A stretch of DNA of 64,000 bases, from positions 15,438,001-15,502,000 of the forward strand of contig OY740796.1 in NCBI GenBank assembly GCA_963514005.1. The letters are read 5' to 3'. Below, piece after piece: positions 19,386 to 63,412 of the stretch. A program made the position numbers and the translations under genes. This stretch comes from Raja brachyura. Its lineage: Eukaryota. Numbering within the stretch: the first letter of the stretch is position 1; every line of letters begins with the position of its first letter. A model generated the notes under the pieces. The model searched no databases, was not told where the DNA came from, and saw nothing but the letters and a program-made list of their open reading frames with translations.

Positions 19386-19936
19386 AATGAAAGTTAAAGT
19401 TTTCAATTTGCTACCCTTGATTCTAGCCAGCAAGATTAATCTCAATATTTCACTGGCCTGATTTAGCAGTCAGCAATGACACGATGGAGCTAGTCATTGA
19501 ACTAAAAAAAAAGTCCACATAGAACTGGCTACTGGCATCAACTTCCCCTTTTCCAAAAAACATTTACTGGAGTAATTCAGCAGGACAGGCAGCATCTCTG
19601 AAGAGAAGGAATGGTTGACCCTACTGTTTCTAGAGAGAGAGAGAGAGAGAGCACATTGTGTCCACTAGTGTTCTCAAATACATCAAAGGGACTGAAGCAT
19701 GTCATTCATCTCTGAGACAACATTTTAAGTTATATTTTTCTTCTCCATTTTCCAATCATTTCTGGATTTAAAATAAATTCAATGTTCCCTTAAGTATATG
19801 CACAGATGAATTCATTAATTGAGATATTGGGACATGTGCTGCTATGCCGAGAAGGTATTTTGAATTAGCATCTCATCTTTCTTAATGACAAATATGAGAT
19901 GGGAACTCTTTGATTATCTGAGGGAAGGATTGCTCC

Positions 19937-20056
19937 AGTCTCGACCCAAAACATCACCCATTCCTTCTCTCAAGAGATGCTGCCTGACCCGCTGAGTTAC
20001 TCCAGCATTTTGTGTCTACCTTTGGTTTAAACCGGCATCTGCAGTTCCTTCCTACA
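19937..20056 (+). mobile_element. Penelope-derived short element (hammerhead family), 5' clipped; a partial inverted mate lies at about 19565-19620
   Basis: TCTCGACCCAAAACATCACC...GATGCTGCCTGACCCGCTGAGTTACTCCAGC...GCATCTGCAGTTCCTT family body. Confidence 0.75.
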
Positions 20057-20374
20057 GAGTTAATGTCTGATGTCAGTCAGAGGATCCCTGCAGTCCAGCA
20101 ATTGTGATGTCATCAGGCTTGGTGCACAGCTTGAAGAATTGTTTTTTTCTGCATTGAAGAATTCTCGCAGCAAACAAAGACATTAATGTATAATTTACAG
20201 ATTGTATTTCAAATGTTTGATGGAGTATGAAATAAAGATGAGAAAATACAAAAGATGGCTGAGATAACCATTTTTGGGTTAATTTGTTATAATTGGTAGA
20301 ATAACATTTATAAAATAGTTTTAAATAGTATACTTTTAATAGTATGAAATAGTATTTTACTGATAGTTTGCTAA

Positions 20375-20720
20375 TAGAGTCATAGGGTGACACAGCATGG
20401 AAACAGGCCCTTCGTCCCAACTCGCCCAATGGCCAACATGTCCCTGCTACACTATTCCCACTAACCATGTCCTAGCCATGTACCTGTCTAACGTTTTCTT
20501 AAATGTTGGGATAGTCCCTGCCTCAACTGCCTCCTCTGGCAACTTGTTCCATACCCCTGCCACTCGGTGTGGGAAAGGTACCCCTCAGATTCCTATTAAA
20601 TCTTTCCCCTTTCACCTTAAACCCATGTCGTCTTCTCCTCGATTTGCCTACTCTGGGCAAGAGACTCTGTGCATCTACCTGAACTATTCCTCTCATGATT
20701 TTATACACCTCTATAAGATA
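20375..20720 (-). mobile_element. CR1 LINE 3' end
   Basis: YKIMRGIVQVDAQSLLPRVGKSRRRRHGFKVKGERFNRNLRG on the minus strand. Confidence 0.85.
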
Positions 20721-22034
20721 ATGAAATAATTATGTGGGAGTTTATCATTGCAAAATCGGTTATACTTCATGCAGCAAGGCAGAATATTTTCATGTGTTCT
20801 TCACAATAGGAACAGCTGTACAAACCAGAATTTTTTGTGAAATTATGCTGGAAACCTTCAACTGGTCAGACAGCATTTGTGGAAAGAATCAATCAATGTT
20901 TCAGGTCTGGGGACCCTTCATTGGACCAGGAGTTGAAAGGTCTTTGGGCCTGACATGTCAATTTTTTTCTCGCTTCCCACTGATTATCTGTCCTACTGTG
21001 CTTCCAGCATATTTGTTTTTTATTTCAAGTTTCCAACATGCACAGTTTTTTGATTTTATGATTTTGTTTTTCATCAGTTCACTGTTTTTATTTTTCACTG
21101 CAGTGGCGATGGATAAAATATAGTGCAGCTTATGAAAGAACACTTAATCACTGCCATCAGCTTCATGGATTTCCCATAAATTATGCAAGCGTGGAAATCC
21201 TGAAATTGCTTCCTGTTTCATTGTGGTATGCAAATGCTGATGGTTTCACCATCATTATTAATTCAAATTCCATTTCAAGGTTTTATAGTAAGTTGTCTCT
21301 CTGTAGCTGTGAATAAGGATACTTTTGTGCTCCCTGTTACTATGCTGCCTGGTGTGCAGAGATACAGCCTTGAATCAAAAATCGATATTTGGTTATGTTT
21401 CAAGGCATATCTTAGGTTACATTTTATTGCTTTTCTTTGTGGAAGCATATCAAGATAAAAACATGCAAGCATCTATCTTAAACAAAGTAAAATACCAAAA
21501 CATTTTAGGGTCGATTTTCTTGTCCAGCATTTTTTTTTCTATCATAGCAGATTATTTTTTTTACCTTATCTTGCTATGATACCTACTGAGACTGGATGTT
21601 ACTCCGGATTCGGTTAATTTAAATGGCATACATGAGTATCAGCTGGGTCTCCCTTTTTGGACCCACTGCATGTTCCATTTGAGGTACCTCCTGTAGCTTG
21701 TTGGGGCCAATTAGCATTTTGCTTTGCCATCAAATGCTGTGTAGTTGTGATTATTTCCACTCACAAAATGCAGCTCTGCCATTCTCTTATTTAAATTAAG
21801 ACCACCGAGGCTTAAAATAAGTTGTTGGTTATCTCTTTACAAATCCTTAGAGTAAAGAAACAAATTGAATAATTCCTTAATATCAGGATTAAATTCTTTC
21901 AAGGTGCATGGTTGGCTAATGCTATTTTTGTAAACTAAAATATTCCTCAATTACTTCCTCCAGAATACTTAGGCTTGAGTACATACAATCTCAAGCTTTA
22001 TAAAGACATTTGGACAGGTACATGGTTACATTAA

Positions 22035-22298
22035 TTGAATGGAAGATACAGCATGGAAACAGGCTCTTCCGCTCATGGAGTCTTTACTGACATTTGATTA
22101 TCCTAGTTCTATGTTATCCCACATTCGCATCCACTCCCTACCCTAGGGGCAATTCACAGAAGCTTACTAATTACGAAAGGAAATCCGCACAGTCATGAAG
22201 AACGTGCAAACTTCATGCAGCCATCACCAGAAGTCAGGATCAAACCCACTTATCTGGCGATGTGAGGCAGCAGCTTTATCAATTGTGCCACTGTGCCG
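22035..22298 (-). mobile_element. V-SINE (HE1-like)
   Basis: Minus strand begins GGCACAGTGGCACAATTG, with tRNA-like head and partial V-core. Confidence 0.7.
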
Positions 22299-22516
22299 AT
22301 AGGAAAGGGTGAGAGGAATAAAGGCCGAACACAGGACTAACTTAGTTTATTTTGATGTGAAAGTTATGAAATTGTATTATTTTTGCAGAAAGGAGACAAC
22401 TGTTCACCCCAACGTGTCTATGCCACGTGTAATAGAGGTACCCAACCTAATCCTACCTTCCATTACTTTGTTTCAATCAAGAAAGTCAAGAAAAAGTCAA
22501 GTGTGTTTAATTGTCA

Positions 22517-24734: not shown

Positions 24735-26200
24735 TATAGAATCATTACAGCACAGAACTGGGCCGTTCGGTTCAACTCGTCTATACCACTCAAGATGCCC
24801 ATCTAAGCTGGTTCTGTTTGCTTGTGTTTCAACAATATCCCTCTAAACCTTTCCTATCCATCTACACGTTCAAATGCCTTGTAAATGTTATTGTACCTGC
24901 CGCAACCATTTCCTCCACCAGCTTGTTTTATTTGTACCACTGTTTGTGTGAAAATGCCCCTGGATTCCTTTTAAATCTTCTCCCTCACACCTTTTGCCCC
25001 ATAGTTCTTGATTCCCAAATCCTAGGGAAAAATTGCGTGCATTCACCCTATTTTGTCCCTAATGAGTTTATATACCTTTATAAGATCACCATTTAGTCTC
25101 CTCCGTTCCAAGGAATATGGTCCTTGCATGCCCATCCTCTCCGTATAACTCAGTCCCTAGAGACGTGGCAACACCCTTGTTAATATTGTTTTGCCATTTT
25201 TCGGGAAGCTGGGTGACCAAAGCTGAACATAACATCCCAGGGTACTCGATGCCCTGATTAATAAATACCAGCATGCCCTAAGCTGCCTTCACCACTCTGT
25301 CTCCTTTCAGGGAACTATGTACTTGTATTCCTAGGTCCCTCTGATCTACAATTCTCCTTAGGACCTCCCGGTTCACTCTGAAACTCCTACCCTGTATTGA
25401 GTTCACAAAATGGCACACCCACATTTAACCCATTTATATGCCATTTGCCAATCCTCAGCCCATTTATCCAGCTGATCACAATTCCAATGCAGTTCTTCAT
25501 AATCATCTGCGCTGTCTACGAGACCATACAAGTGTCGTATGCAAATTTACTAACCAAGTCATACACATTGTCACCCAAATTATTGATATAGTTGTCCAAT
25601 AATGACCCCGGAGGGACCTCATTATTCACAGGCTTCCAATCTGTTCCTGGATTCCATGCGATCGAACCTTCCAGAGCAGCTTACTTTATCAAAGAGGGTA
25701 CACAAAGAGTGCTGGAGAAACTCAGCGGGTGCAGCAGCATCTATGGAGCGAAGGAGATAGGCAACGTTTCGGGCCGAACCCTTGAAGAAGGTTCGGCCCG
25801 AAACGTTGCCTATCTCCTTCGCTCCATTGATGCTGCTGCACCCGCTGAGTTTCTCCAGCATTTTGTGTACCCTCGATTTTCCAGCATCTGCAGTTCCTTC
25901 TTTAACACTTATTACTTTATCAAAGACATTGCTGAAGTCCATATAGACAATGGTTATGGTCCTCCCCTCATCAACCTGCTCAGATACTTCCTCAAGAAAT
26001 GCAATCAAATTCGTGAGGCATAATCTCCCCTGCACAAGGGCTGACTATATCTTTTTCAACCCCAGTCTTTCCAAATATATGTATATCCTCTCCCCCATAT
26101 AGTCTTCTCCATTAACTTACCTGCCACAGATATTATGCTGACTGGTCTTTAGATCCCATGTTTTTCTTTGCGCCCTTCTTAGACACAGCATTCGCCACCC
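24735..26200 (-). mobile_element. CR1 LINE RT/3' fragment, interrupted by a Penelope-derived hairpin
   Basis: QGRLCLTNLIAFLEEVSEQVDEGRTITIVYMDFSNVFDKV on the minus strand. Confidence 0.85.
25696..25911. mobile_element. Penelope-derived inverted-repeat insertion (hammerhead family) with 15-bp TSD
   Basis: Inverted arms of about 88 bp meet near 25785; TTACTTTATCAAAGA at 25681-25695 and 25912-25926. Confidence 0.88.
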
Positions 26201-26816
26201 TCCTTTGATTACCTTTTTAATTTCTTCCATATAATTCTCACTTGCCTCTGATGTTTGAGGTCCTAATTCACAAATGCTAGGCTACTTTTGCAATGCAGTG
26301 CTGATGGAGATGCCATCATTTAAATGAAGTGCGAAATTGAAGCTCTTGGATATGCGTATTTGAAAAAGAGCAGGTCTATTTCCCTGATGTTTAACCTTCA
26401 GCAACATCATGGCAACAGAACTAATCCGTAGCTGATGGATAGTTGCAGAAATTGAGTAGAACATTTCTACATGATAGTGGATGTCTACAGTTGTATGTGT
26501 AGTGCCATGAAATTGTAAAATTATGTTTAATTACAAGTCTTTGTGATATCGTCAATGATTAAGGTAGATTTTGGTGTCCTGTGATACCACATTTCCATTG
26601 GTAAAGAATTTTAAAATATTGGGAGTATGTTCCATATGATATTAGGGTTAGCCAAATGCCACTTGAAGACTACCAAGCATTTTGGGTAATTTATAAAAGA
26701 TCCTAAATATACAAGTCCTTACAACAAGTTTTAAATAACAGGTATATGTAAACAAGAAAATGATCCCAATTGTTTATTCCTGATCTAATTGAATTATTTT
26801 GTTTATCCATTTTCAG

Positions 26817-27455
26817 ATGGGATTCACAGCGTGACAGCACAGTGTGTGCTGAGAGTAATTGTCATTACAGAAGAAATGTTGATCAACAGTATTACGGTGC
26901 GCCTAGAAAACATGTCTCAGGAACGCTTTCTGTCTCCATCATTGAACCGCTTTGTGGAGGGTCTGGCAGCAGTCTTGTCTGCCCCCCAGGAGGACATCTT
27001 TGTTTTCAACATACAAAATGACACAGATGTCAGCGGGAGCATTCTGAATGTCAGTTTTTCTGCTCTGGTTCCTGGTGGAAGCCAGAGCCAGTTCTTCTCC
27101 TCAGAGGAGCTTCAAGAACAGCTATATATGAGTCGGATGCAGCTGACTTCAGTCTCTATGCTGGAGGTGCTCCCTTTTGATGACAATGTCTGCCTGCGGG
27201 AACCCTGTGAAAACTACATGAAATGCATCTCGGTGCTGAAGTTTGACAGCTCCTCTACATTCATTGCTTCAGGCTCCATGCTTTTCCGGTCCATCCATCC
27301 CATCACTGGGCTTCGCTGTCGTTGTCCACCAGGATTTACTGGAGATTACTGTGAGACAGAGATCAACCTTTGTTACTCAAATCCCTGCCAGAATTCTGGA
27401 GTATGTAGTCGCAGAGAGGGTGGTTACACATGCATTTGTGGAGAAGAGTTCACAG
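26817..27455 (+). CDS. CELSR3: CELSR3-like internal coding exon (exon 2 equivalent): end of the cadherin region, membrane-proximal region, first EGF repeats
   Basis: Acceptor ttttcag|AT, donor ACAG|gttagt, 639 nt. Translation DGIHSVTAQCVLRV...SSEELQEQLY...LPFDDNVCLREPCENYMKC...CRCPPGFTGDYCETEINLCYSNPC...RREGGYTC is clearly CELSR. TAQCVLRV, SSEELQEQLY and DDNVCL fit CELSR3 better than CELSR1/2 (from recalled sequences). Confidence 0.95.
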
Positions 27456-30400
27456 GTTAGTAAAACCAGAATTATTTTGCACCACAGTGAAGTAATCTTG
27501 TCTTTGTTTTAAAACCAATTTATAAAAAATATGCTTGTATAAATTTAATCTGTGCAATCTTCCTAAAACGCACATTTCGTTCAAAGAAATGGCTAGATGA
27601 ATGACAGCTGCTATGCACCACCATAAAAGAACCAAAACCTAATGGTACTGCCAGACATGGCATTATTTCAAATGCCTCGTTTCTTTCCAGCTATCCAGTT
27701 GGTATCAAGATGCGGTCAAGCCAGCCAGTCATCCTTTCCTTAAAAAAGACCAGGAGCAGCTGCTCACCAAATCCTCAGCATAATCACAGTGAAGGTTTTG
27801 TCGTACACCCAGTGATGGAGTATATGAATAGTATCAAGAATCTTAATATCATGTTATAATTCCACGGTGATCAGTATGAGTCAGGCTTCAACTTCTGGCA
27901 TTTGGAGATCTGTGATGTGCAATAGGCATTACACCGTAAAGCAATTATTCTTCTCAACAAGTATTGATGCTTACTTGTACTATGATCAGCATTTGATTTT
28001 GACCACATTTGCTTCCTGATGAGGCTTTAATGATGTCCAGTGTAGGCTCTACGTTAATTTAGTTTCAGTCCTTCTGTAGTAAAAAATGCACAAGCTCACG
28101 TCTACAAACCTTTACATTATTTCAGTTTTATTCCTGCAAGAAATGTCCGCCCAACATTTTTGATGCTTTGGATTTTTAATTATTTTGAAAATTCAATTTT
28201 GGCAGTGGATGTTAGGTCCATCCAATCATTTTTTTCCAGAGTTAAATAACTGCAATAACATTTATAGTTACATTTATTGACCGTCTGCATTGCAGATCCC
28301 TGCAGACTGTCTGAGATTAAATTCTTTGCTTAATGCGTGCAAAGGAAACAAACCACCTCTGGCTTATTTTGAACTTGCCCACTGCAGCCCCACTCCTTTA
28401 ATATGGGCCAAAAGGTCCATTATAGATTGGATCTGGATTACCCGTGTTTCATAATGAGCCCTCAAGAGAAATAAATAATTCCACTTCCACCTTCTCCATT
28501 TCTTGATTAAGTTCTTAGTGCAAAGCCAGGTTGAGTTCATGTATTGGAAGTGGGGGTTAGAGCTTACTGCAGCCCTATTAATTTCAGTTATCAAATGAAG
28601 CTTAGCACAGGAGTTACAGGGTCGCTAATTAGGTGTTTCTCAGTTCAAACACAAACTAAAGAATTCTGCACACAAAATGGAAATGATTTTTGGATATTTT
28701 TTACTACTTTTTAAAATTAAATTAAAACATTTCTGCCTCTGTAAGCTCGGTGCCGTGTTTCTCAATGGAATACTATGGTCATTTGCTCCCATTTTCTTAC
28801 TGAAGAATTGAGTAACAATTTATTTGAAAATAATTTATTATTGCTATTTAGGGTACAGTGACAGATGGTTATTTGTTTTGTAACTCTTGCTCTGCAATAA
28901 TCATAAGTTGAATGTAGTAAGTGAACATATTTTTTGTGATGTTAAGCTATCTGGATAGAATACGTGTAGAGAATTGAGCTTAATGTAGACAAATGTATGT
29001 TGATTAAAGAAATCAGCAGCCATGTGCACTTGCTAAAGTGGCCCCAATTTCAAATGGTGTCTGTTTGTTATAGGATGTTTCTTTAGATGCTAGAAGACTG
29101 TTGCATGTCACAACGCTGACATCAGCAGAGATAATCTGTAAAGTAGAATCCTTAAGGCATTGGGCGACATAGAGAGCAAAAGTTAATCAAAATGAAAACT
29201 CCTCATTGAATCCGTTGGTCGTGGAAATTGTCCTAGAAATTTAAAAACCATAAGCTGTCATTCAAAAGTCATGTGGGTACACACGATAGACCAGAATACT
29301 TGCAACAGCCAGGTAAAACCTACTGGCTGCTGTGCATGCCAGTAACCAGTGCTCTCAGGAAAGGACTGCAGGAGGAACTCTGATCAACTTAGTTATTGGT
29401 TGGCTGACCAACAGTCCTCAAGGCCTCTGTTATCGTCGAACGTGATTAAATGTTTGCATTTACCAACACTTTTCATTAATGCTCTATTGTAATCCCTCTG
29501 TAAGGAGATGTTATCTTATTTAAGTTTGGTGACTGTGTAATACTTCACATCCTTTAAGCATTTCCAATCTCATTATTTAATATCCTGATCTGTCTCCCTG
29601 CTAAATACTGGATAAAAGTAATAATTTAAATTTAATGCCGTGGTTTTATTTTATCAATCTTTAATGGGCCAATTTCCATCATTACTTTTGCATTTTATTT
29701 TGTTTATTAATTTAATTTCAGCATTCCTCCTTGTTTTCCTACATTTATCCTTCTCCCATCTCATCGTTTTTGTTGTTATCATCCTTTCTTCTGTTTTCCG
29801 TGTAGACTAAATGCTCGGTAAGTGCCTCTTAACCAAACATTTTCCCATATGTCACTTTGTGGCATCCCATTAGTGTTTATCTTTTTCTTGTTTTAATGTA
29901 ATGTATTTTTTCTGGACTCTTTTGTGTCATTTTAAACGTTTCCCATGGGTGCTGTACATCGTTATTTGCCAATATCATTACACCTTAGCTTTACAAGATT
30001 CTGTTTTCAGCTCCCAAAATTGCCTTTTATTTCGGTTTTCATCAATCTAATTCCTTCTCAAATATTGTTGTGCATTTTATTATGATGACTATTGCTTTGA
30101 TGCTATCCTGCTTTCACTTCCCCATCAATCCAGCTACTCCCTTTCCCAATACTGTATCCTGTTGGGAGCAGACTCCATTCTCGAAATAGCTCTTCAAAAA
30201 TGGTATCTTTCCATGTATTTCAAAAACACTTTGAACAAATAAAAAAAATCCAGTTGTTTTGAAACTCAGCCTCTGAACTCTCGGTGGCATCCTCAAAAGG
30301 AGCTTTTCACTTTTCCAGGCGGTGTAGCTAGTGAAATGAACCAAAACAATTGGATATTTTCCTCTCGAAATTCCTCTCCAGCCACCTTAAATGGCCTATC

Positions 30401-30887
30401 ATTTGACAATGGCAGCACACATTACGATAAGACATAATATGACTGTAATGTGCGACACAAAATTGCTGCTATTTTGTCTAATTTGGGTGTCTCATATCAT
30501 TTGTACATTTCTAGTCTGTTCTCCCCACACCCTATATCTTTTTCAACTCCTTATTTAGGCAACCTTCTAAGCCATAATGTCATGCCCTGTCTTTTGTCTA
30601 TGTATTCTGTCATCTTTTTCCTTGTCTTCATAGGAGAAATATGCATCATACTTGTTGGACTACAGCAATATCTGTGGAATTTCCTTCTCAACCTTTTGAA
30701 CATTTGCTCTTTGATATGCAAACCTTTATATTTGTGAATTCGTTCAGTATCTAACTGTGTTCGGGATGTAACTTTCCAGTAATTCTTGCCCCCTTAATTT
30801 AAGTGTGTCTCAGTTAGCAGTCTAGTTCACTGACTGTGAGCCAGATTTACTTATGGCTGAGGCATTTCCTGGATAAAGTCAGTGTAA

Positions 30888-31182
30888 AGGGCCTGTCCCA
30901 CTGTACAAGGTAATTCCCGAGTTTCCCCTGTTTCGAACTCGGAGAATTACGGTAATGGCCGCTCGTAGGTACTCGGGGCTCTCGTGGACATTTTTCAACA
31001 TGTTGAAAAAACTTCACGAGCTTACCGCGTTTCCCGAGTACCTGCCATTAGCGGTACGAGCCGCTAAGAGACGTCCCGAGCTCCGACGTACCCGCTACGT
31101 ACATTCTACGTACTTACCACCGGTTTGATTTTTTTAAACTCGGGAGAGCTCTTGGGTAAACTCGTATAGTGGGACAGGCCCT
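30888..31182. mobile_element. PIF/Harbinger-type MITE
   Basis: TAA|AGGGCCTGTCCCACT ... AGTGGGACAGGCCCT|TAA: 15-bp perfect TIR and 3-bp TAA TSD. Confidence 0.88.
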
Positions 31183-31582
31183 TAAGGGTTCCAAATTGGA
31201 GAAAGGCTATTTTTTTCTAGTCTGAGAAGTGATTTAGTAGAAATTGAGAGGAAATAGTTATTTGAGGGTAAATCAATCTCAGAGCAATGTTGTGCTGTTG
31301 TTTCGAAAAAGGAAGAAAGGATGAACAAAGTAATTAAAGATCAATTTATTTAATTGGTAATAGGCAAATTATTAGATCCCATTCTAAGGGTCATAAGACT
31401 ATAGACATAATTGAAAAAAATTCAGGGACAATCCATAATGATTTGTTATGAATTGTAGTGTGTGAATAATTTGATTTTTTTTTGCTGAGGCAATAAGGAA
31501 AGTTGAAGTGGATAATATGTTTGTTACACAATTCTGGGTCAGATTATAGTCAGGAACTATAATCTGACCCTTTCGGATTTTG

Positions 31583-34156: not shown

Positions 34157-34200
34157 ATGGGACGCCTCACGAATTTGCGTGTTGTCCTTGCGCAGGGGCC

Positions 34201-34233
<33 letters not shown>

Positions 34234-46573: not shown

Positions 46574-46579
46574 TAACTT

Positions 46580-53222: not shown

Positions 53223-53445
53223 GTGATCACTGCGAAGTGGACATTCGGTCTGGCCGCTGTTCTCCAGGTGTGTGTAGAAACGGTGGATCCTGCATGAATC
53301 TCCCAGAAGGTGGCTTCAAGTGTAATTGCCCTTCAGGAGGATTTGAGAAGCCATATTGTGAAGTGACTGCACGATCTTTTCCACCAAAATCTTTTGTGAT
53401 GTTTCATGGCCTGAGACAAAGGTTTCACATGACAATATCTCTGAC
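53223..53445 (+). CDS. CELSR3: CELSR3-like exon 3 equivalent: EGF repeat and start of laminin-G domain 1
   Basis: ttag|GT GAT CAC TGC...; 223 nt; DHCEVDIRSGRCSPGVCRNGGSC...ARSFPPKSFVMFHGLRQRFHMTISL; donor AC|gtgagt; phase continues from the previous exon (G|GT). Confidence 0.95.
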
Positions 53446-53744
53446 GTGAGTATTTACCGATTCTTCCTGCTTTCCCGATTAGAAGGTGTTTTGATGAATG
53501 CAGTAATTTAAAATGTTGAAGGCAGTTTCGGCAAATGCACTTTCTGAAATGTATTGGTTAGAAGGTCGTTCCATGGAACCGATATTTCTGGAGAGACAAT
53601 GGAAAGGATCACCATCATAAGGAAATTATGATCCAGCAATCACGGAACATGTCTAATGTGTGATCCTGGCAGACTTTAACTACACAGATCGTAATCATGT
53701 TCAAAGTTGCCATTTTTGTAGCCTAAAATGAAATGCATGCTAGT

Positions 53745-53865
53745 CGAAGAGATAGACACAAAGTGCTGGAGCAACTCAGCGGGTTAGGCAGTATCTCTGG
53801 AGGAAAGGTACAGGTGACGTTTCGGGTCGGAAGCCATCTTCAGACTGAAAATATGGGGGGTGGGG
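53745..53865 (-). mobile_element. Penelope-derived element with hammerhead core (53816-53843)
   Basis: Minus strand CAGT-CTGAAGA-TGGCTTCCGACCC-GAAAC-GTC-ACC plus family body. Confidence 0.8.
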
Positions 53866-54089
53866 GAAACTGGTGGGAGCTTTGTCTCATCGAAGAGATC
53901 TCAGGGTTATTCTCATGATGAATAGAGTGCCTCGACTTTGCTCGTGTTTTTGTCCATAGAGAAAGAGGGTACTTGCGGCCTTATAAATTGTTATCTGTTA
54001 GAGGCTTCTAAAGCTATGAATCGTACTTTAATTAAAATACGTAACTTGATCTGTAAACAGTGGACACCAGGCCTGCAGTTCAACAGTGG

Positions 54090-54960
54090 TAAAGTTTATT
54101 GTCATACTCACCAGTACAGTGAGGAGCAGGTACAATGAAATATCTTGCTTGCAGCAGCAGCATCATAGATGACTCAGAAAAATGGACAAAAATACATTGT
54201 ATAAATTATACATAAATTACACATACAATTCTAAGGAAAGGAGACTGGAAATCAAGGCGTTGGTACAAATACACAATTGGAAAAACAATCAAGCCCATAG
54301 TAGTGCAAGAGGTGAGCTGTGGTGTTCCATTTTCCCAATATGATCAGGGTTATGAAGGTTGGCTCGGGAACATGATAGATGTAGGAAGTAGCTATTCCTA
54401 AACATAGTAGTGGGGGATGTGTCCGTGATGGACCAGTTGAGTGCAGCACTGTCTGTTCTGTACATTGGAATTGCCATACCATGTCATAATGTAGTCAGGC
54501 TATTTTCTACGGTACATCTGAAAAAGTTTTGTAGCGTATTCAGAAACACACCAAATCTCTTTAAACTTCTAAGAAAGTAGAGGTGCTGGCATGTCTTCTT
54601 TGCTTGTGCTGTGCTTCGCCCAGCACAAGCCATCTGAGATGCTATGTCCAGGAATTTGAAGTTGCTAAGTCTCTCTACCACTGATCCACCAATCAAAGCT
54701 GGTATGCGGTCTCCCGACCTACCCTGTCTGGAGTCAGCGAACAGTTCCTTAGTCTTGTTGACACTGAGCGAGAGGTTGTTGAGGTACCACTCAACCAGGT
54801 ATTCTATCCTTTTCCTGTACTCTGACTCATCACCACCAGTGATTCGGCCAGCCTTAGTGATGTTGTCGCTGAATTTGTAGATGGCATTGGTGCTGTGCCA
54901 AACCACCTAGTCATGGGTGTAAAGTGAATAGAGCAGGGGGGCTTAACATGCAGCCTTGAG
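54090..54960 (-). mobile_element. Rex1/Babar LINE RT C-terminus and 3' end
   Basis: NAIYKFSDNITKAGRITGGDESEYRKRIEYLVEW..NNLSLSVNKTKEL...LYFLRSLKRFGV; TGACAATAAA 3' end. Confidence 0.88.
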
Positions 54961-55164
54961 AATTTCTTGTGTTCCTGTGTTGTGTCTTCCTGTTCCATTG
55001 TTCAGGGTGCCGAGAGTAAATGAAGATTGAGTTTTGCGTGTTGAATGCGAGAAGTGGATGTATTTTATTAATGGAACTACCTGCTAATTGAAAAGGTGGG
55101 GCAGTGAGATCCTCTGGCAAATATGCGAATGTTGGAATTGCTGACTCTTAGAGGAGCAGCCAGG

Positions 55165-55258
55165 CTGAAAAATGGTCTCGACCCGAAACATTGCCTATTT
55201 CCTTCGCTCCATAGATGCTGCCTCACCCGCTTGAGTTTCTCCAGCATTTCTGTCTACC
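55165..55258 (+). mobile_element. Penelope-derived hammerhead-family element (core mutated)
   Basis: CTGAAAAATGGTCTCGACCCGAAACATTGCC plus family body. Confidence 0.8.
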
Positions 55259-57202
55259 GAGGTTGATTTTTGAAGTACTTTTCACAGAATTGCTACAGCA
55301 CATTGTAACAATTTTATATGAAATGGCAGGAAAATATCTGAAGCTGCTGGGATCTTTATTTGTGGCAGATGAAGTGAGTTTGCAAGTGAAGAACATGTGT
55401 GCTTGAATTTATTCTTCAGTAGATCAGATGGGGACTCGGAAAAAAATGAGTTCCCCATCCTGAACAGTAGAAAATGCCTTCAGTTTCATTGTAGTAGATT
55501 AAAAATTGGTTTTAACAAATGTTAAACTTTATTGTGCAATAGTTTATGATCAAAAGGTTTTTAATTGAATTGGAATTTGCAGAACAAACTATATTTCATA
55601 TGATATTTGTATTATTTTAATCCTAATTTTTAATCTGGCCATTTTAATACAATTGAGCACAGCACATTGTAGCTTTCCCTGCCATCCATGTGCAACTCAT
55701 TTCACAGGTACCAGGCAGTGCAGTGATACACATGATGTGCTTCCTTTCCTGAATGTGGCTCTCCATTAAAGTGTAAAGTGGGTGGAGAGAGGTGAGAACA
55801 GGCTAGGTTAATGATGTTCGGTGACAATGATAATGGATTAAACTTCAATTCAGATGAAATCAAATAAAGGATACTATTCATTTTACAGTAATGACATCTC
55901 ATTATAGTTGCCCGCTGTTGCAATTTTATTATGCAAAGGAAGCAACCGCAGGGGGCTGTCTTGGTTGCCATTCAGATATTTTATCAGTTTCTAGCACAAA
56001 GAAATAAAATGCCTTTACATTACCAAACAAATTAAAATTCACAGCTGAATTCTGTCAGAAATATCAAATCAACTGCTCAGCAAAAAAATATGCTGTTTAA
56101 CTTATTTTATGCCCCATTATTGTGATGCAATATACCTTAATATTCGCCTTGCAAAAAACAGAGCTGGACAAATTCCATTTATTTGGTGTCTTTCACAACC
56201 TCAGGATCCTCCACAGCATTTTACTGGCAATGATGTACCACTGTTTTTGTAAGGTAGTAAATATGTGGGAAACATCTGGTGTGGCAAGATGGACAATATA
56301 ATGCTGAGCAATAAGTCTTGTTACTAAGAAGAGTACTGACTGTGGCATTTGAAATTGAGTTGAAATTAAAATAGAGCTACTGTTCTGTGAAATGCATTTG
56401 AGCATGCTCAGTCTGATTCCAACTGGTTCAAAAACGTTTCTGTTCCTGAACGGCGTTTGCAGCAATTGGCAATTTTGTTTTCTCATTACTAGATAGCTGA
56501 TGTGGAAATAGAAAATATAACTTATTCAGTGGAAAATTTTGTTTTTGAAGTTGGAACTGAGAGGAGTTTCTGTTTGTGGACAATGAGCAACTCTGGTGCA
56601 ATTGCATGGGTTCTAAAACTTTTCTTCCACTCTTCTTCCAATAACAGTTTCTTCTCAACTTGATTTGTTTAGTTTTTAGCACAAAATCTACTGTGAACCA
56701 GCAAAATTGGACAAATGTTTCACAACATTTTATTTGTTTTTTTTGCTTTGAAAATGATGTCTAGATCTTGTGGATTCTTATAGCTAAAACGTGTTTATCA
56801 ACCATCTTCATTTAAACTCAGTGTCAGTCCAAAAATTGTAAAGAGCATGACTTGAAGTTACAAAACACGACTTTCATAAAGGCAACAATACTATTTACTT
56901 GTGAGTAGAGAAAAGGATTCATTTTTCAGAAATTCATTTAAGACTTTTACAAAGTTGGTGGCACTGTTCCCAATTGATCCATCAACGACCTGAAAATGAA
57001 ATCTGGGATAGAATCCCCCTTTGTAGATTTTTTTCACTGTGATGGCCTGATTAGACTTTTGGGAGAGGCGTGCTTCCGGTGCAGTACAACGATGTAAGAA
57101 GATTGCAGAAGTTTGAGGTGCATTGAATATAATTGATGTTGTTTGCAACAGTTGCACCACATTTATTATTGCACTGATGGAAAACAAGTGGAAACTTCAG
57201 TA

Positions 57203-57436
57203 CATAGAAACATAGAAAATAGGTGCAGGAGTAGGCCATTCGGCCCTTCGAGCCTGCACCGCCATTCAATGTGATCATGGCTGATCATCCAACTCAGTAT
57301 CCCATACCTGCCTTCTCTCCATACCCCCTGATCCCTTTAGCCACAAGTGCCACATCTAACGCCCTCTTAAATATAGCCAATGAACTGGCCTCAACTACCT
57401 TCTGTGGCGGAGAATCCCAGAGACTCACCACTCTGT
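57203..57436 (-). mobile_element. Young CR1 3' end (same family as the 49.3/49.9-kb copies)
   Basis: Very similar to 49296-49530. Confidence 0.9.
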
Positions 57437-57689
57437 ACTACTCTGGAGCGGGGTCAGGTACGAAAGGAATGTTACCATTTTCTTTTGTATGCTCTGTGAC
57501 TTTAGTGATACTGTGCGGAAATAGGCCCTTCGGCCCACCTAGTCCATGCTGACTGGTGACCACCCCGTACACTAACACTCAGCAGCTCAGGCAGCATCAG
57601 CAGGTGCAGGGTGTCTAGGATGATGGGAAAAATCTGTGCTCGCTGGGGTAATGGGATGGGATACGAAGTACTTTTTCTTCCTCCATATG

Positions 57690-58185
57690 TTCATCTCCTT
57701 CCCCGTGCCCCATACTTTTTTTATCCCCTCTATCTCCTCCCACCTATACCCTTCCTCAGGCTTTACATTTCACCACTCTTCTTTCTTTATCTGATACCTG
57801 TTATCTTGGGGAGAAGGGAGGGAGAGATAGATCAACCATGATTGAATTGCGGAGTAGACTTGATGGGCCGAATGGCCTAAATATACTCCTATCACTTGTG
57901 ACCTTATACCCTTTGCCTCCTTTTCACTTCCAGCCTTTATCACTTGCTCCACCCATCAGCCAGTCAATCTCCTTATGTCTAATTATCTTGGTAACTCAAA
58001 TTTCACTCTACCTTCATTGGTACATGTGGCAATAAACTGACCTTGAAACCTTACATTTGCCAGGATTTGCTCCCGCCCCCCCCCCCACCCCCGCCCCCAC
58101 AAACCACTCTTTTCCAGCTTTCTAACCCTACTTCATCATTCTGAAAAAGAGTACCGACCCGAAACGTCACCTGTTCATTCTACAG
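57690..58185 (+). mobile_element. Penelope-like pyrimidine-rich 3' region ending in a degenerate hammerhead core, with nested tails
   Basis: CTGAAAAAGAGTACCGACCCGAAACGTCACC at 58141-58171; CR1-type tail nested at about 57807-57905. Confidence 0.6.
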
Positions 58186-58574
58186 TCCATTTTGTCTCTA
58201 ACTAATTGAGAAGATGGGTTTGACTTTCACTAGCAACATTGAACATTATTCAGTAGCGGGCCTGCCCTTCTTGACATAAGTAATAATTGTGAAACATGAG
58301 TTATGCCCTGTGTAGACTGACCATGTGAAGGTAGTCCTGCAGCCCTTATACCAACTACAAAGCACAAGAAAAACAAGACACCTCTCACAAATTCCGCCCC
58401 CCTCCCCATTCTCCCCCACACCCTCCCTTTCTCCCCCTCCCCTGTGCCCCACCTGGAGTCCCAGCTATTTTTGCCCTTCCCCACCCCTTTGCCCTCCGCC
58501 TACATGCCTTCCTCTGGCAATTCGCAACTCTTCAAATTGCAAAGAGGAAGGTATCCATATTGGTATTGGTTTAT

Positions 58575-58883
58575 ACCGAAGATAGACACAAAAAACTGGA
58601 GTAACTCAGCGGGCCAGGCAGCATCTCCGGAGAGAAGGAATGGGTGACATTTCGGGTCGAGACCCTTCTTCAGACTAGTCAGGGGAAAGGGAAACAAGAG
58701 ATATAGACGATGATGTAGAGAGATAAAGAACAATTAATGAAAGATATGCAAAAAAGTAACGATTATAAAGGAAACAGACCATTGTTAGCTGTTGTTGGGT
58801 GAAAACGAGAACCTAGTGCAACTTGGGTGGGAGAGGGAGGGAATGTCAGGGTTACTTGAAGTTGGAGAAATCAATACTCATAC
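58575..58883 (-). mobile_element. Penelope-like element 3' end: ORF C-terminus, UTR, hammerhead core; 14-bp TSD
   Basis: TGGTATTGGTTTAT at 58561-58574 and 58884-58897. Minus strand encodes ..SMSIDFSNFK* (stop 58854-58852), followed about 180 nt later by CTGAAGAAGGGTCTCGACCCGAAATGTCACC. Confidence 0.85.
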
Positions 58884-58889
58884 TGGTAT

Positions 58890-59265
58890 TGGTTTATTAT
58901 TGTCATGCGTACCAAGATGCAGTGAAAAGCTTGAGTTTGCATATTATCAAATCAGATAATACCATATGTGAATACAATCAAGTCACAATTATGTGAAAAC
59001 AGAGAAAACAAAGAAAAATACCAGAGCACAGAATATACTTTTCCACCATTGAGGCGCAACAAGTCTGTAGTTTGCAATGGGGTAGATTGAAAATGTGTAA
59101 TCTAGTTTATGGGTGGACCATTCAGAAGTCTGATAACAGAGGGGAAGGAGCTGTTCCTGATTCTGGTGATATGTTCTTTCAAGCTCTTATATCTTCTGCC
59201 TGAGCGGGGAGAAGAGGGAATGGCTGGGGTGGAAAATTGCTTTGATTATGTTGGCCGGAGCCTGA
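58890..59265 (-). mobile_element. Rex1-type LINE 3' end
   Basis: Same TGACAATAATAAA end and 3' region as at 46780 and 54090. Confidence 0.65.
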
Positions 59266-59269
59266 GCTT

Positions 59270-60410
59270 TTACCCTTGTCTAATACATATGAGGATCTTG
59301 CTTCTTGTTTGGATGAGGATGGGGACTGCAGGGAGGATGTGCAAATTGTTCATGGAATAGGGAGCCATTCATGTGGGGGTGGGCGTGGGGGGAGAACAAT
59401 AGTTGGGGGAACAACCACTGCTGCAATGATCCAGTCCAGGTCCATTTTGCCTGCCCGATACCCGGGTACGGACATCCCTACTGACGTTGAGAAAACCTTG
59501 GACTGGGATGGGGTGGATTCTGCTGTTATGGTCAGCTACTAATGAAATGGGAGGTCTAGGTTGCTGAGACAATATGAGCAAAACCACAGGGCATAATTTA
59601 AAACCAGATTCACAACAGTGACAATCTCTGATTTTCTACCTGAGCCACTTGCACATTGGCAGAGGGTGAACAAGGTTAGAAAATTAAATGTGTGGCTCAA
59701 AGGTTGGCGTGGGAGAAATATATTCTGATTTATGGGGCACTGGCACCAGTACTGGGGAGAAGAAAGCTTTTCCGTGAAGATGTGCTTCACCTGAACCATG
59801 CTGGGCCTAGTGGCCTGGCAAAACACACTGCGGTTAAAGATAAGATTATAAACTAACAGGGGGACGGGTTCTAGTAATGGAAGGTTTAATGGAGCTAAAG
59901 TAAATGAGAAACTAGTGGCACATAATAGCAAATGGGAGAATGGAAGTCAGAGTAGGACTGAAGGGAATTAAGATATAAGCAATTGTGTGTGGCAGAAAGT
60001 GAATCCAGATTAAGTAAGCTAAATGCACATAGCATTTGTAACAATTGAATTGACAGCACAAATTGTAACAAATGAGTCTGATCTAATAGCTACTACAAGT
60101 TATGGTTGCAGGGTGACCAGGTCTGGGAACTGAATATTCCATGTAATTCAGTGAGCCAAAAGAGAAAGTGAAAAGAGAAAAGTAGTGGGATGCGATAGTT
60201 AATCAAGGAGTTATCATTGTAATACCGAGTTGTGAGATGGATCCAGTCATCGGTACTTTCAAAATCTGATTGGGGTTAAAATAATCAATGGCAGGGAAGG
60301 ATAGCGTGGAGGAGGAGTTTATGGGATTGTTTCTTAGAGCAATTTGCAGAATGTACTTAATATAAAAAAAAAACATGAGCTTCAATAGAGATATAAAAGC
60401 AGCAAGAGTT
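59270..60410 (+). mobile_element. Decayed CR1 ORF1 (SGNH-esterase-like) and ORF2 endonuclease start
   Basis: Remnants KVRKLNVWLKGWRGR..FMGHWHQYWG..HLNHAG and LNAHSICN..DLIA..WLQGDQVWELNIP. Confidence 0.7.
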
Positions 60411-60457
60411 TCTGTGGATCTATATGGTTATGTACACTACACAGCAGTATGATTTGT

Positions 60458-60548
60458 CTGAAGAAGGGTCTCGACCTGAAACGTCACCTATTCCTTTGCT
60501 CCATAGATGCTGCCGCACCCGCTGAGTTTCCCCAGCATTTTTGTCTAC
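60458..60548 (+). mobile_element. 91-bp Penelope-derived hammerhead insertion with 16-bp TSD
   Basis: CAGCAGWATGATTTGT at 60442-60457 and 60549-60564; the insert begins exactly at CTGAAGA. Confidence 0.88.
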
Positions 60549-60928
60549 CAGCAGAATGATTTGTTCAGCCAAGGATTGGAGATACAAATTTAATGACAAA
60601 AGAAGAGCTGGATGATTTGTGGATCTTGGACCATGAATGAAATCTTTCCTCATGCAATTTTGGCAGACTGTGCCCAGTGGCCATTGACCATTGAGAGCTT
60701 TTAGATTCGCTTTAGTCTTTAGACCAGTGCCTGTCTGTATATGAAGCCTCAGGACCTGTCAGAAAGAGACCATTATTTCAATGCTGTGATTGTCTGTCAG
60801 TTAGAATTAGTTCACGGTAGAATGTTAGTGACAGATTAGATTCACATGCTTTCTGTCCAAAGAAGTTGGAAAGGAGAGCCACTAAAATAGAAATATATTC
60901 TTCAGTTGAATCTATTCTCTACTTTCAG

Positions 60929-61044
60929 GTTCGCTACACAAGAAAATAATGGGCTCCTGTTTTACAACGGTCGATTTAATGAAAAACATGATTTTATTGC
61001 AGTGGAAATCATTGAAGGACAAGTTCAGTTGAAGTACTCAACAG
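60929..61044 (+). CDS. CELSR3: CELSR3-like exon 4 equivalent (laminin-G)
   Basis: tttcag|G TTC GCT ACA...; 116 nt; FATQENNGLLFYNGRFNEKHDFIAVEIIEGQVQLKYST; donor G|gtttgt. Not in the ORF track; read by hand. Confidence 0.93.
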
Positions 61045-61363
61045 GTTTGTTCTAAAAATATTTTTACATTAAACATTCAATTCAATTACATCAGTTCCTA
61101 ATCTGCAAATAAATTCCCATTATATATTGAATCATACCTAGTCAATTTTTTGGGATCTCATGGAATGATATAACAATTAAACTACTACTGTGGTTCTTGG
61201 GTGTTAACTGTTTGTCGTGCACGGAAAATAGGAGGTGGCAGTCATCATGAAGATTTTTGTTTGCCTTTTACCCACCTTAAATGTAGCTGAAATGGGACAG
61301 GTGACATCTGTTTATTTCAGAATACATAATTAAGGTCCACTCTCTATAATGTTCTCTTCACAG

Positions 61364-61452
61364 GGGAGTTGATGACAGTTGTAACCCCGTATCTTCCTGG
61401 TGGAGTCAGTGATGGGCAATGGCACACGGTACAGATCCAATACTACAACAAG
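61364..61452 (+). CDS. CELSR3: CELSR3-like exon 5 equivalent (laminin-G)
   Basis: ttcacag|GG GAG TTG...; 89 nt; GELMTVVTPYLPGGVSDGQWHTVQIQYYNK; donor AAG|gtagaa. Confidence 0.93.
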
Positions 61453-61658
61453 GTAGAAAATTAAGACTAATTACTAATGGGGTTTCCTTTACACTTTAAT
61501 TTGTGTGTGCAATATTTTCTAAGCAATTAAGCTCCTGACGTCAAAACTCTTATAAGAGAAAAAAAGAGGGCCCCTGCACTCCCCGAACTGCTCTGTACTT
61601 ATTAGATCATGGCTGATCTTTTGCCTAAGTGCTACTTTCCTGCACTAACCCCACATTC

Positions 61659-61798
61659 TTCCTTTCCCTTGACTCTCAGTCTGAAGAAGGGTCTCGACCC
61701 AAAACGTCACCTATTCCTTTTCTCCAGAAATGCTGTTTGACCTTTGAGTGCTTTTAGATTCATTTTAGTCTTTAGTTACTCCAGCTTTTTGTGTCTAT
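61659..61798 (+). mobile_element. Penelope-derived hammerhead-family insertion nested in a minus-strand CR1 3' fragment (about 61570-62130)
   Basis: CCCACATTC repeated at 61650-61658 and 61799-61807; core CTGAAGAAGGGTCTCGACCCAAAACGTCACC (G12 mutated). Confidence 0.82.
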
Positions 61799-63412
61799 CC
61801 CACATTCCTTGATTTGCTAAGAAATTGATGATCTGATATCCAGCAACTGAGCCTCCAGTTGGATGGTGAATTTAAACGTTTTTGTACCTTTTGAGTGAGG
61901 AACTTTCTTTTCCTTTCAGTCCTGAATAGGCAACCCCTTACTTTCAGATTATGACCCTTGGTTCTAGATAATTGACCCAGAGGAAACATTATGTGAAATT
62001 CTGTAAGAATTTTGTAAGTTTCAATAATCAACTCACACTCTTATGAACTCAAGTCAAGTCTATTTAACCTCTCCTTAGAAAGCTCTCCTCAGAAATCACT
62101 CTGATAGACTTTTGTTGCATTCCCTATGCTTCTTATTCTTTGTTCAAATATATTTAAATTTGTGAATTCCAATAACTGAACGTTCTACCATGAATCGTTC
62201 TCAAATCATCAAAACCCTTCTTGATTTTGAATGGTTTCTTCCCTTGCAAGAGGAGGGGATCAATCAGCTTCTCACGTAAATTAAATCTTGTATCTATGCT
62301 ACTATTCCATTAAATCTGCTCTGCAACCTGTTGAAGCTTTAGACAACCTTTGTAATGTACCCAAAATTGAGTTTCCTACTACCTGTTGAGTTTTCATTTT
62401 TAATTAGACCTGTAGCAGGTTATTATTTTTCTCACTATCTCCTCTCGTTTATGATTTAAAGATATTTCACTGTGGTGCACCTTTGTAGATGCCAATGATG
62501 TAAGTTTGAATAGTCAGAAGAAATGTACCTTTATTGTTCTGCAGACTGTTTTATTATACAATCTTTAACACTGTATTTAATACTGCCGTTGATAGCCTCT
62601 CAGACTTCCGTCTTTGTTGGGAGATTTGTCAAAGGAAGTATGTAAGGAAGTTTGAAGGCACCCCCAATACAACATTACCAGCAACACAAATCATGAGCTG
62701 GCCTATTGATTACACCTGGGGACAATATTTCCACTTACTTCCTCATGTAGGAGGTTTATTAACAAGTAGGTTGCAGCACAATTGCCAAGGTAATGTTTTT
62801 GGGCAATGACAGTCCCATCTGGATTCAATCAGCTCATCTTTCACAAGTACTGAAATTAACTTCTAAAGTGTCATAAGCAAATTTGCAAATGATTAGAAAA
62901 TCCACTGGATAATTTAACTTCCATAAATCTGAAGATATGGCAATCGTGGGTAAATACCTCTGAGTTTGATTCTCTTTCTATGTAAAAGTTTGATAAATAG
63001 GAGAAAAAGAAATAAAGTGGGTGGATACCTGATGTTTCTTTTTTTTATTAAGAAAGGGCAGGTCAGTAAAAACAACATAGGAGATTATTTGAAATTACCT
63101 TGAAAGCCAACAATCATATTTATAGAATTAGCAAAGTTTACTTTTAAGAAAAAGGGGGAAAAAAGTGAAAGGAGAAAATAATTGATTGCCAATTTTTGGA
63201 AAATGCATTCCAAACAAACAGTACAAACAACAAGCAATTCTTTAAAAATCTGACGTGTTGTTGTAAGAAGCTAAGTCGTGTTAATGAGAAAGTCAAAAGT
63301 GTTTGCTCTATATATTTATATTTTTATAATCATCTTGCTGTGGTGGCTACTTTTATTTACAATCCTCTTCATTAGTATGTGTTATTTTTATGTTTGTGTA
63401 TATTTCTTTCAG

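Follow-up and report, generated by a model that had tools for sequence, protein, structure and literature searches.

The window, a stretch of 64 kb, carries a dense series of short repeats built around the core of a minimal hammerhead ribozyme, many of them inside a CELSR3-like gene. This locus raises the question whether the repeats are a ribozyme family amplified in its own right or the remains of a larger element, and what part the ribozyme has had in their spread. The answer that we consider likely is that they are solo and inverted pseudo-LTR (pLTR) remnants of an autonomous Neptune-type Penelope-like element (PLE) with RT, a C-x4-C-xx-C linker and a GIY-YIG endonuclease (EN), copied from uncut RNA and decaying neutrally.

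A profile made from six window copies was scanned against the window and 20 shuffled windows. It has detected 17 arms in 14 loci of the window and none in the shuffled windows. All 12 places named by the initial annotation (19.6, 19.9, 25.7, 35.65, 37.3, 50.7, 53.8, 55.2, 58.15, 58.6, 60.46 and 61.7 kb) were recovered, together with two loci beyond its list, at 20.9 and 36.4 kb. The unit is comprised of a hammerhead core, a body of ~65 nt and an optional tail of ~35 nt. The features, with their target-site duplications (TSDs), are the following.

Near 26810-27457, 53222-53446, 60903-61046, 61360-61452 and 63401-63571, + strand: CELSR3-like exons; copies in 26810..63571 are intronic
19565..19620, - strand: 5'-truncated unit beginning at ~+26, without the CUGAAGA half (profile scan; no TSD found)
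19937..20055, + strand: unit beginning at +11, CUGAAGA absent, tail present (profile scan; no TSD found)
20845..20928, - strand: old diverged unit with broken core, absent from the initial annotation (profile scan; no TSD found)
25696..25911, both strands: head-to-head inverted pair whose two cores are clipped where the arms join, only the + arm being tailed; 15-bp TSD 25681-25695 / 25912-25926
35654..35749, + strand: solo unit from G(-2), core bases intact, G16.2 to A (triplet AUU); 13-bp TSD 35641-35653 / 35750-35762
36332..36408, - strand: old fragment, absent from the initial annotation (profile scan; no TSD found)
37286..37515, both strands: young head-to-head inverted pair, two intact cores, tail on the - arm only; 16-bp TSD 37270-37285 / 37516-37531
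50653..50890, both strands: head-to-head inverted pair, two broken cores, tail on the - arm; 11-bp TSD with 1 mismatch
53753..53889, - strand: unit with ~45 nt of pyrimidine-rich sequence upstream, no core base changed, a single mismatch in helix II; 9-bp TSD
55161..55259, + strand: solo unit, G8A; doubtful 8-bp TSD
58138..58180, + strand: fragment, G8A, without body (profile scan; no TSD found)
58575..58883, - strand: 5'-truncated PLE with the end of the RT/GIY-YIG ORF (final codons and stop), 3' UTR, core 58673-58646 and body; 14-bp TSD 58561-58574 / 58884-58897
60458..60548, + strand: solo unit, complete minimal hammerhead core 60458-60485, predicted cut after 60485, CELSR3 sense; 16-bp TSD with 1 mismatch
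61659..61798, + strand: unit with G12A and an internal insertion, ~20 nt of 3' UTR lying upstream; 9-bp TSD

TSDs of 9-16 bp have been identified at 8 of the 14 loci (25.7, 35.65, 37.3, 50.7, 53.8, 58.6, 60.46 and 61.7), which supports the independent insertion claimed earlier for six copies. The search found none at 19.6, 19.9, 20.9, 36.4 and 58.15, and at 55.2 a doubtful 8-mer only. The pairs at 25.7, 37.3 and 50.7 had been overlooked as head-to-head inversions, and the description of the copies as tiny insertions does not extend to the one at 58.6, which measures ~310 bp.

This longer copy matches a GIY-YIG-bearing locus at 83% over 218 nt. The unit lies within 500 nt downstream of the ORF in 24 of 30 GIY-YIG loci, in agreement with the Penelope origin proposed before. 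It is present at both element ends, ~290 nt past the stop codon and ~160 nt ahead of the ORF ATG. A full-length unit of ~3.95 kb (L221) has cores 3946 bp apart and its ATG at +164, and another locus (L126) contains a tandem junction; pLTRs at both ends or as a partial tandem, as in EN+ PLEs, are thus represented by these two loci. RT, along with a C-terminal GIY-YIG, occurs in one repeat-linked ORF, as RVT_1 and GIY-YIG matches in a single 577-aa frame (E 5e-5 and 5e-4, neither reaching its curated cut-off); in two partial frames no domain was matched. The Neptune linker CX2-5CxxC is found as C-x4-C-xx-C between RT and EN in the translated loci, and the optional 30-40 bp tail, the head-to-head inverted copies and the TSDs of EN+ PLEs are also observed. 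None of the ORFs found is both intact and autonomous; L221 carries a frameshift, and the longest frame among young copies has 577 aa. On sequence grounds the window repeat is assigned to the pLTR/5' UTR unit of a Neptune-type PLE. Its minimal hammerhead, its optional tail and its head-to-head inversions have all been published before for PLEs.

Splice-like signals flank the 3' UTR; there are 0 spliced genomic copies and no splice joint among the joints listed. A start produced by splicing, in which the 3' UTR would be an intron and its removal would bring the end of the ORF in frame with the core, was considered and rejected: it has 0 genomic matches, the young subfamily is without donor and ATG, and the real ATG is at +164.

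The high copy number claimed earlier has been substantiated by a genome-wide motif search, which gave 58,883 exact canonical cores, and by a sample of 40 stretches of 10 kb from contigs C1-C7, in which the unit makes up 12,176 of 400,000 bases (~3%). This corresponds to an estimate of ~0.8 million loci (0.61-0.99 M). The 184 sampled loci comprise 143 single units, 37 head-to-head pairs and 4 others. One alignment row, L057, was disregarded for its faulty coordinates. A second sample of 80 young copies, from the first 2.6 Mb of C1, is made up of 25 long, 37 short and 18 inverted copies. Direct tandem units each with a complete hammerhead, as in non-LTR retrozymes, were not found in the window. 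A few direct tandem pairs exist elsewhere (L148, L157), and the one tandem array that was checked, of 66 bp x 6, is without CUGAAGA.

The consensus has the CUGANGA, GAAA and UH elements, the extra base after A9, the G10.1-C11.1 pair and the palindromic 15.2-16.2 of PLE minimal hammerheads, and with the exact copies it upholds the minimal type I anatomy recognised earlier. The individual window copies are less regular. The motif CTGAAGA...GAAAC-GTY, said to be shared, is complete in its core bases in six of 17 arms (35.65, 37.41, 37.42, 53.85, 58.68 and 60.46) and in none of the rest; only three of these (37.41, 37.42 and 60.46, judged by eye) have in addition the C15.2-G16.2 palindrome and a helix II paired throughout. 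The CUGAAGA half is missing from the copies at 19.6 and 19.9, the two arms at 25.7 are clipped where they join, and G8A is present at 55.2 and 58.15 and G12A at 61.7. The rule of GUC or GUU wherever the core is intact breaks down at 35.65, where the triplet is AUU. Helix II is better read as 4 bp with a tetraloop, and its variants, earlier taken as variation with pairing kept, are one-sided (G-U) changes or decay with no two-sided compensation. Helix I is of 2 bp, as pair 1 forms in 69 of 70 arms, pair 2 in 65 and pair 3 in 3, and is not the 4-5 bp helix of PLE minimal hammerheads. Rfam hammerhead models gave no match to the window at E <= 1, the only matches being chance miRNA matches on inverted pairs. 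Six of seven folds of isolated units were no better than shuffles (z between -0.15 and +1.9), an unconstrained cofold did not yield the dimer fold, and the junction hairpin of the pair at 37286..37515 sequesters CUGAAGA (fold z = -4.75). With its 2-bp helix I the hammerhead is predicted to be at best weakly active, cleavage requiring a dimer or a protein.

The initial annotation had made its reading depend on core nucleotides being better conserved than the flanks. The outcome is divided. The core columns are among the least variable, with 36 mismatches observed against 76 expected from base-matched body columns, and this is consistent with intact source elements; in the inserted copies G12 decays at the rate usual for a CpG, being mutated in 22 of 76 arms (29%), and the G's of other CpGs in 56 of 236 (24%). 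The low core mismatch is attributed to source-element variation and alignment-edge bias, and selection after insertion may contribute to it.

Insertions end at two 3' sites, ~+92 and ~+128 from C3, and have TSDs of 9-19 bp; their 5' ends pile up at the 5' edge of the core or run hundreds of bases into the ORF. In the young sample 48 of 80 copies end within -8..+11 of the core's first base, 2 in -199..-9 and 1 at +29, the predicted cut site; 2 of 39 apparent 5' ends in this set were reclassified as subfamily UTR divergence. In the unselected sample, where some apparent 5' ends are the point at which a rarer subfamily's UTR diverges from the library, the interval -10..+10 holds the ends of 59 of 141 single arms, and +26..+30 those of 4. 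Among the exact cores genome-wide, 19,252 lose the element's base at -3 and 13,672 at -4, and 47,785 keep both. An independent run, whose contigs are not registered as RNA and cannot reveal RNA starts, has loose ends at the same three positions. For older single copies a strict TSD search gave a weak signal, 10 of 128 as against 0-2 in controls. With 48 of 80 ends at the core edge and a single one at the cut site, the templates were therefore most likely uncut RNA, probably starting just before the core; since both RT start sites of the course proposed below lie 3' of the cut site (+28), any core-containing copy would have been made from uncut RNA. This mapping of 5' ends against the cut site is a new result.

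The 5' junctions were searched for an additional G left by the cap, which was not established; one of 40 junctions had a clean single extra G beside a TSD. The base before A(-3) is G in 39, A in 43 and T in 18 of the first 100 listed (hand count), and that before G(-2) is G in 60, T in 33 and C in 7 of the first 100 listed. Only 5,949 of the latter G's are without a second G, so that microhomology with the inverted arm can explain the G excess.

Exactly one arm is tailed in 17 of 18 young inverted pairs and in 24 of 32 unselected ones (p = 0.002), and TSDs flank 13 of 32 inverted pairs as against 0-3 in controls. The one-tail rule in inverted pairs, 17 of 18 among the young ones, is new here.

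The same 5' pile-up could have arisen on long RNAs of the same element if a folded hammerhead or a bound protein acted as a roadblock to RT. This is possible, though we hold it to be the less probable course, as RT would have gone beyond helix II before the stop, isolated units are no better folded than shuffles in the comparison given above, the next 190 nt are almost free of ends (2 of 80) and D. virilis Penelope has an internal Inr/DPE promoter (PMC2377424). A roadblock would agree with the spread of the ends over ~19 nt rather than a single base, with long copies that read through the same point, and with the cap signature that was looked for and not established. The initial annotation had described a non-autonomous family built around ribozyme cores. 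This does not agree with the occurrence of the same diagnostic bodies on long copies reaching the 3' UTR or ORF (25 of 80 young); the short copies resemble products from the 5' end of an autonomous element. An ORF-free lineage with a fixed 5' end, as in SINE-like families, was not found in 4 of 5 clusters, where long copies are present, and the 5' ends are spread. It is unlikely that solo units, as SINE-like elements or retrozyme monomers with a promoter and RT start sites of their own, have been recopied in trans by the Neptune protein, the exact 33-nt motif being common to long and short copies (25 vs 55 of 80) and the 5' junctions individual. Such a unit would presumably hold an initiator-like start. 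It would also hold both 3' end sites, and it matches the Penelope downstream promoter element at 5 of 8 positions (RGACGTGY, PMC2377424); short and inverted forms are 55 of the 80 young copies, one old cluster is almost without long copies, and non-autonomous pLTR derivatives of vertebrates are among the proposals of Li et al. 2026. The RNA of the anole element, as described in PMC11167929, must reach ORF position +172, past the RT start at 111-118, and by analogy a solo would therefore lack the needed 3' part.

The host gene, on the + strand at 26810..63571, is CELSR3-like (best named matches 83%). That intronic cores are active ribozymes under selection, cutting host pre-mRNA such as that of CELSR3 as cis dimers or in trans, is highly improbable. 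In its favour are the tens of thousands of intact cores, the intact single arms in CELSR3 (2 sense and 6 antisense, not significant) and the few direct tandem pairs mentioned above. Against it, the strand bias over 171 kb of CELSR3 is not significant in this underpowered comparison (Fisher p = 0.42, binomial p = 0.39), helix I is of 2 bp and inverted pairs fold as hairpins. In the assays described, monomers were uncleaved and dimers weak (PMC4209133), 8 of 9 Xenopus dimers remained uncleaved, and the anole hammerhead needed the element's protein (PMC11167929). The effect on the CELSR3 pre-mRNA hinted at earlier is unsupported, the window having one single-arm fully intact sense core (60.46).

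For the preferred origin from an autonomous Neptune-type PLE, we propose the following course after the example of the anole PLE in vitro. The endonuclease of the element would nick the target and RT would start internally at the two 3' sites. Read-through (tandem) RNA would give the long copies, and RNA with its 5' end 2-3 nt before CUGAAGA the solos of 90-130 bp; this 5' end is probably the element's own start site and otherwise an RT stop. Both target strands would be primed, one per site, and the cDNA 3' ends would join by microhomology into a head-to-head pair with one tail. Inserted copies would be dead on arrival and then decay neutrally, the hammerhead being a hitch-hiker maintained in source elements. 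Some members of the family may have been propagated in the absence of the ORF, since in the oldest cluster long upstream sequence is present in 1 of 15 singles.

A further-reaching reading, which we put forward as a conjecture with the chances rather against it, is that PLE reverse transcription has left a fossil record at ~0.8 million sites of this genome, in which the hammerhead is bases 4-31 of the transcript, overlaps the internal promoter and is almost never cut in retrotransposing RNAs, and two-strand priming uses the two start sites one each. If so, the ribozyme would oppose retrotransposition, by taking off the cap with the first 31 nt or by trimming tandems, or would survive partly as promoter sequence instead of making templates, and 59,000 to 135,000 intact cores would form a genome-wide pool that the element's protein could switch on inside host pre-mRNAs.

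The role of PLE hammerheads is described as still open (PMC8557442, PMC11167929), and this family, with its very many copies, allows it to be tested on the genome sequence alone, by cDNA stops against the cut site and by tail-site use. About 3% of a vertebrate genome can be one short unit. Since the parts are known and most copies are dead, the surprise lies in scale and precision and not in kind.

The pLTR minimal type I hammerheads of PLEs, reported from fish, coelacanth and frog among others, are mostly single motifs thought to belong to truncated PLEs (Cervera & de la Pena 2014, PMC4209133). The present ones share with them the CUGANGA core, the extra base between A9 and G10.1, the G10.1-C11.1 pair, the palindromic 15.2-16.2, the absence of loop 3 and the pLTR location. 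Helix I is of 2 bp here, like the D. virilis variant, whereas that of S. mansoni has 4-5 bp; the copy number is far above the 4,000 (coelacanth) and 9,000 (Xenopus) given there, and 5' ends have been mapped here.

Neptune-clade EN+ PLEs (Craig et al. 2021, PMC8557442; Arkhipova et al. 2013, PMC3846280) have the same RT, CX2-5CxxC linker and C-terminal GIY-YIG, the same strong 5' truncation, partial tandems, solo pLTRs and TSDs, and the same head-to-head inverted pLTRs with a palindromic junction and a 30-40 bp tail often at one end. In contrast, solos and pure pLTR-pLTR inversions dominate here (55 of 80 young) at ~0.8 M loci, a count of ~37,000 being reported there for Naiad in a crab, and the pLTR excludes the ORF start.

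PAc, the Anolis Poseidon (Frangieh et al. 2024, PMC11167929), also has two internal RT start sites that define a tail, with the hammerhead upstream of both, uses uncut RNA as template and extends both target strands; the present data lend in vivo support, in another clade, to the in vitro result on uncut templates. The PAc ORF begins inside helix II, whereas the ATG is ~160 nt downstream here, and the in vitro start sites as reported for PAc have no strand difference, whereas a tailed and an untailed arm are almost always paired here. The animal non-LTR retrozymes (Li, Clavereau & Pollet 2026 preprint; PMC7229834) are likewise non-coding, hammerhead-bearing, pLTR-related and dispersed as monomers; as defined there they are direct tandems with a hammerhead per unit, whereas the window copies are solos and inverted pairs.

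Positions are numbered from C3, the first C of CUGAAGA, as +1, with the predicted cut after +28. A search profile derived from six copies in the window has detected 17 arms, each a copy of the unit (hammerhead core, body of ~65 nt and optional tail of ~35 nt), spread over 14 loci from 19.5 to 61.8 kb; the same profile gave no matches on 20 shuffled windows. All 12 places of the initial annotation were recovered, together with two additional loci at 20.9 and 36.4 kb, and TSDs, which it had reported for six copies, are present at 8 of the 14 loci (9-16 bp). Head-to-head inverted pairs within a single TSD have been identified at 25.7, 37.3 and 50.7 kb. The core said to be shared by the copies holds in part: every catalytic base is kept in 6 of the 17 arms, and by-eye reading finds helix II and the C15.2-G16.2 palindrome also kept in three of those six. 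A possible copy, weak and very old (E = 0.011), lies at 8654-8715 (+), outside the range first annotated.

As had been proposed, the unit belongs to a Penelope-like element (PLE), of which it forms the end. Among 30 genomic loci chosen for the GIY-YIG region of the ORF, 24 are followed downstream by a same-strand copy of the unit no more than 500 nt away, and a single 577-aa frame carries matches to RVT_1 (E 5e-5) and GIY-YIG (E 5e-4), both below the curated cut-offs. This frame has a C-x4-C-xx-C linker, the motif by which the element is assigned to the Neptune type. Upstream of the window copy at 58575-58883 (-) are a pyrimidine-rich UTR and then the last codons of the ORF. A full-length frameshifted element (L221) has cores 3946 bp apart and an ATG at +164, so that core, body and tail constitute the pLTR/5' UTR; a tandem junction is seen in another locus (L126). 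The N-terminal region of the element (L221:4121-5941) is long and Pro/His-rich, with ~600 aa preceding the RT and no match in a Pfam search. The RT regions of young copies share 97-98% identity. In older subfamilies (L031-L059) the 3' UTR opens, at the stop codon, with a GT resembling a splice donor and closes immediately before the core with a pyrimidine tract and AG, an arrangement reminiscent of the D. virilis intron that ends at helix I; a search for spliced genomic copies lacking such a 3' UTR found none.

The diagnostics published for minimal hammerheads of PLEs, namely the extra base after A9, the G10.1-C11.1 pair and a palindromic ACGU replacing helix III, are all present in the unit (PMC4209133, in its available text). 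Helix II has 4 bp and a tetraloop; its variation had been read as retaining pairing, and the changes prove to be either one-sided or products of decay. In helix I two pairs form, in 69/70 and 65/70 arms, the first being U-A or U-G and switching between subfamilies, and its third position is a near-invariant A-C mismatch (paired in 3/70 arms). Predicted folds of isolated units are no better than shuffles, and the inverted-pair junction at 37.3 kb is predicted to form a strong hairpin burying CUGAAGA. The expected excess of core over flank conservation is found only in one respect. Mismatches affect 36 of 787 cells at non-CpG core bases, against 76 expected from base-matched body columns, a deficit consistent with intact source elements, to which alignment-edge bias also contributes. 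For G12, a CpG base, the loss is 29% compared with 24% for other CpG G's, and post-insertion protection is therefore not visible.

The high copy number suggested for the family is borne out genome-wide. Forty evenly spaced 10-kb stretches of the seven largest contigs contain 117 loci, the unit making up 3.0% of sampled bases, and extrapolation from these largest contigs alone gives ~0.79 M loci (bootstrap 0.61-0.99 M). The 30-nt canonical core pattern has 58,883 exact matches and the 33-nt young-body motif 67,600, with zero in both reversed controls. In 143 sampled arms the core is not spanned in 71, broken in 40, present alone in 12 and accompanied by a paired helix II in 20, the last class extrapolating to ~135,000 arms. 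For comparison, ~4,000 minimal hammerhead motifs are given for coelacanth and ~9,000 for Xenopus in the available text of Cervera & de la Pena (PMC4209133). Copies frequently adjoin or sit inside other copies, and tail-to-tail or back-to-back neighbours also occur (L168, L184, L219). Two loci 220 kb apart (L234 and L237) have both flanks in common, and hence reflect duplication of a host segment and not independent insertions.

Insertion ends were analysed in the first 80 loci on one of these contigs (C1) that match the young-body motif (+48 to +80) exactly, core presence not being required; 25 are long, 37 short and 18 inverted (two reclassified). The 5' end falls at -8 to +11 in 48 of the 80, at +12 to +38 in seven (one at +29) and at -199 to -9 in two, and 23 extend to ~-200 or further. 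Unselected single arms show a similar pattern, ending at -10..+10 in 59 of 141 and at +26..+30 in four, some of these being subfamily-divergence edges. Among exact cores genome-wide, the A of the element at -3 is absent in 19,252 and its C at -4 in 13,672, the latter partly a subfamily with T there; 47,785 keep both. Loose contig ends at -4, -3 and -2 are found in the contigs of an independent run. The 3' ends defined by TSDs cluster at +87..98 (23/45) and +119..131 (15/45). Exactly one arm bears the tail in 17/18 young and 24/32 unselected inverted pairs (p = 0.002), and 2,029 perfect 21-nt inversion centres were counted.

In the anole element PAc, as far as the available text of PMC11167929 goes, RT has two internal start sites, whose positions define the tail, cutting and extension take place on both target strands, RNA past the start sites is required, the hammerhead cleaves only with protein present and the dominant template is uncut RNA. 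By analogy, this layout would explain the copies of the skate unit. RT would initiate at two internal sites 3' of the cut site, so that each core-bearing copy would be made from uncut RNA; cut RNA would yield +29 ends, which are rare. Long copies may derive from read-through RNA, solos (single pLTR remnants) from RNA starting just upstream of the core, and inverted copies from priming on both strands. The pile-up of 5' ends suggests a transcription start at -3/-2, where the sequence matches the initiator consensus; the Penelope of D. virilis has an internal Inr/DPE promoter (PMC2377424). The same pile-up could possibly be an RT roadblock instead, and a cap signature, looked for in exact-core flanks and sampled junctions, was not established. 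By analogy with PAc, which requires RNA beyond its start sites, solos are probably unable to re-mobilise.

The host gene on the + strand is CELSR3-like (83% to named CELSR3-like proteins vs ~73% to CELSR1), with its exons mapped. An action on its pre-mRNA, raised from the sense orientation of several cores, finds no support: across its 171 kb, 14 single-arm copies lie sense and 20 antisense (p = 0.39), the counts for intact copies being 2 and 6 (Fisher p = 0.42), a weak test. The window also contains the following features.

34151-34253 (-): full-length U6 snRNA copy in a CELSR3 intron (Rfam, 84 bits), several substitutions; probably a retrocopy
43795-45412: Tc1/mariner-type DNA transposon, 223-bp inverted ends, DDE_3 transposase broken
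49288-50383 and 57202-57434: LINE 3' fragments, which we take by resemblance to be CR1-like
15561-16299 and 22646-22795: minisatellite clusters, units of 31, 19, 48 and 30 nt

Two of the LINE fragments form a ~1.1-kb inverted arrangement (arms of 294 and 146 nt), and the minisatellite regions at 16.3 and 22.7 kb are mutually related in inverted orientation.

At L148 and L157 the unit, core included, is duplicated in short direct tandem within one TSD, and these duplications are natural candidate cis dimers. Tandem arrays of the body without CUGAAGA have also been identified at L037:3047-3441 (66 bp x 6), L051 (~54-bp units) and L097; their layout is retrozyme-like, with the full core missing.

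Literature searches covering the main texts of mostly open-access papers turned up no account of the family, of such a copy number or of a map of 5' ends against the cut site. The skate PLE family is new and unusually abundant, and its component features are already known: the available texts describe minimal hammerheads in pLTRs and widespread solos (PMC4209133, PMC8557442, PMC3846280), and one-end tails and head-to-head inversions of PLEs (PMC8557442, PMC3846280). Its copies serve as a useful mechanistic footprint. Retrozymes, in the available descriptions, are defined by direct tandem units, and the skate PLE-unit family falls outside that definition.
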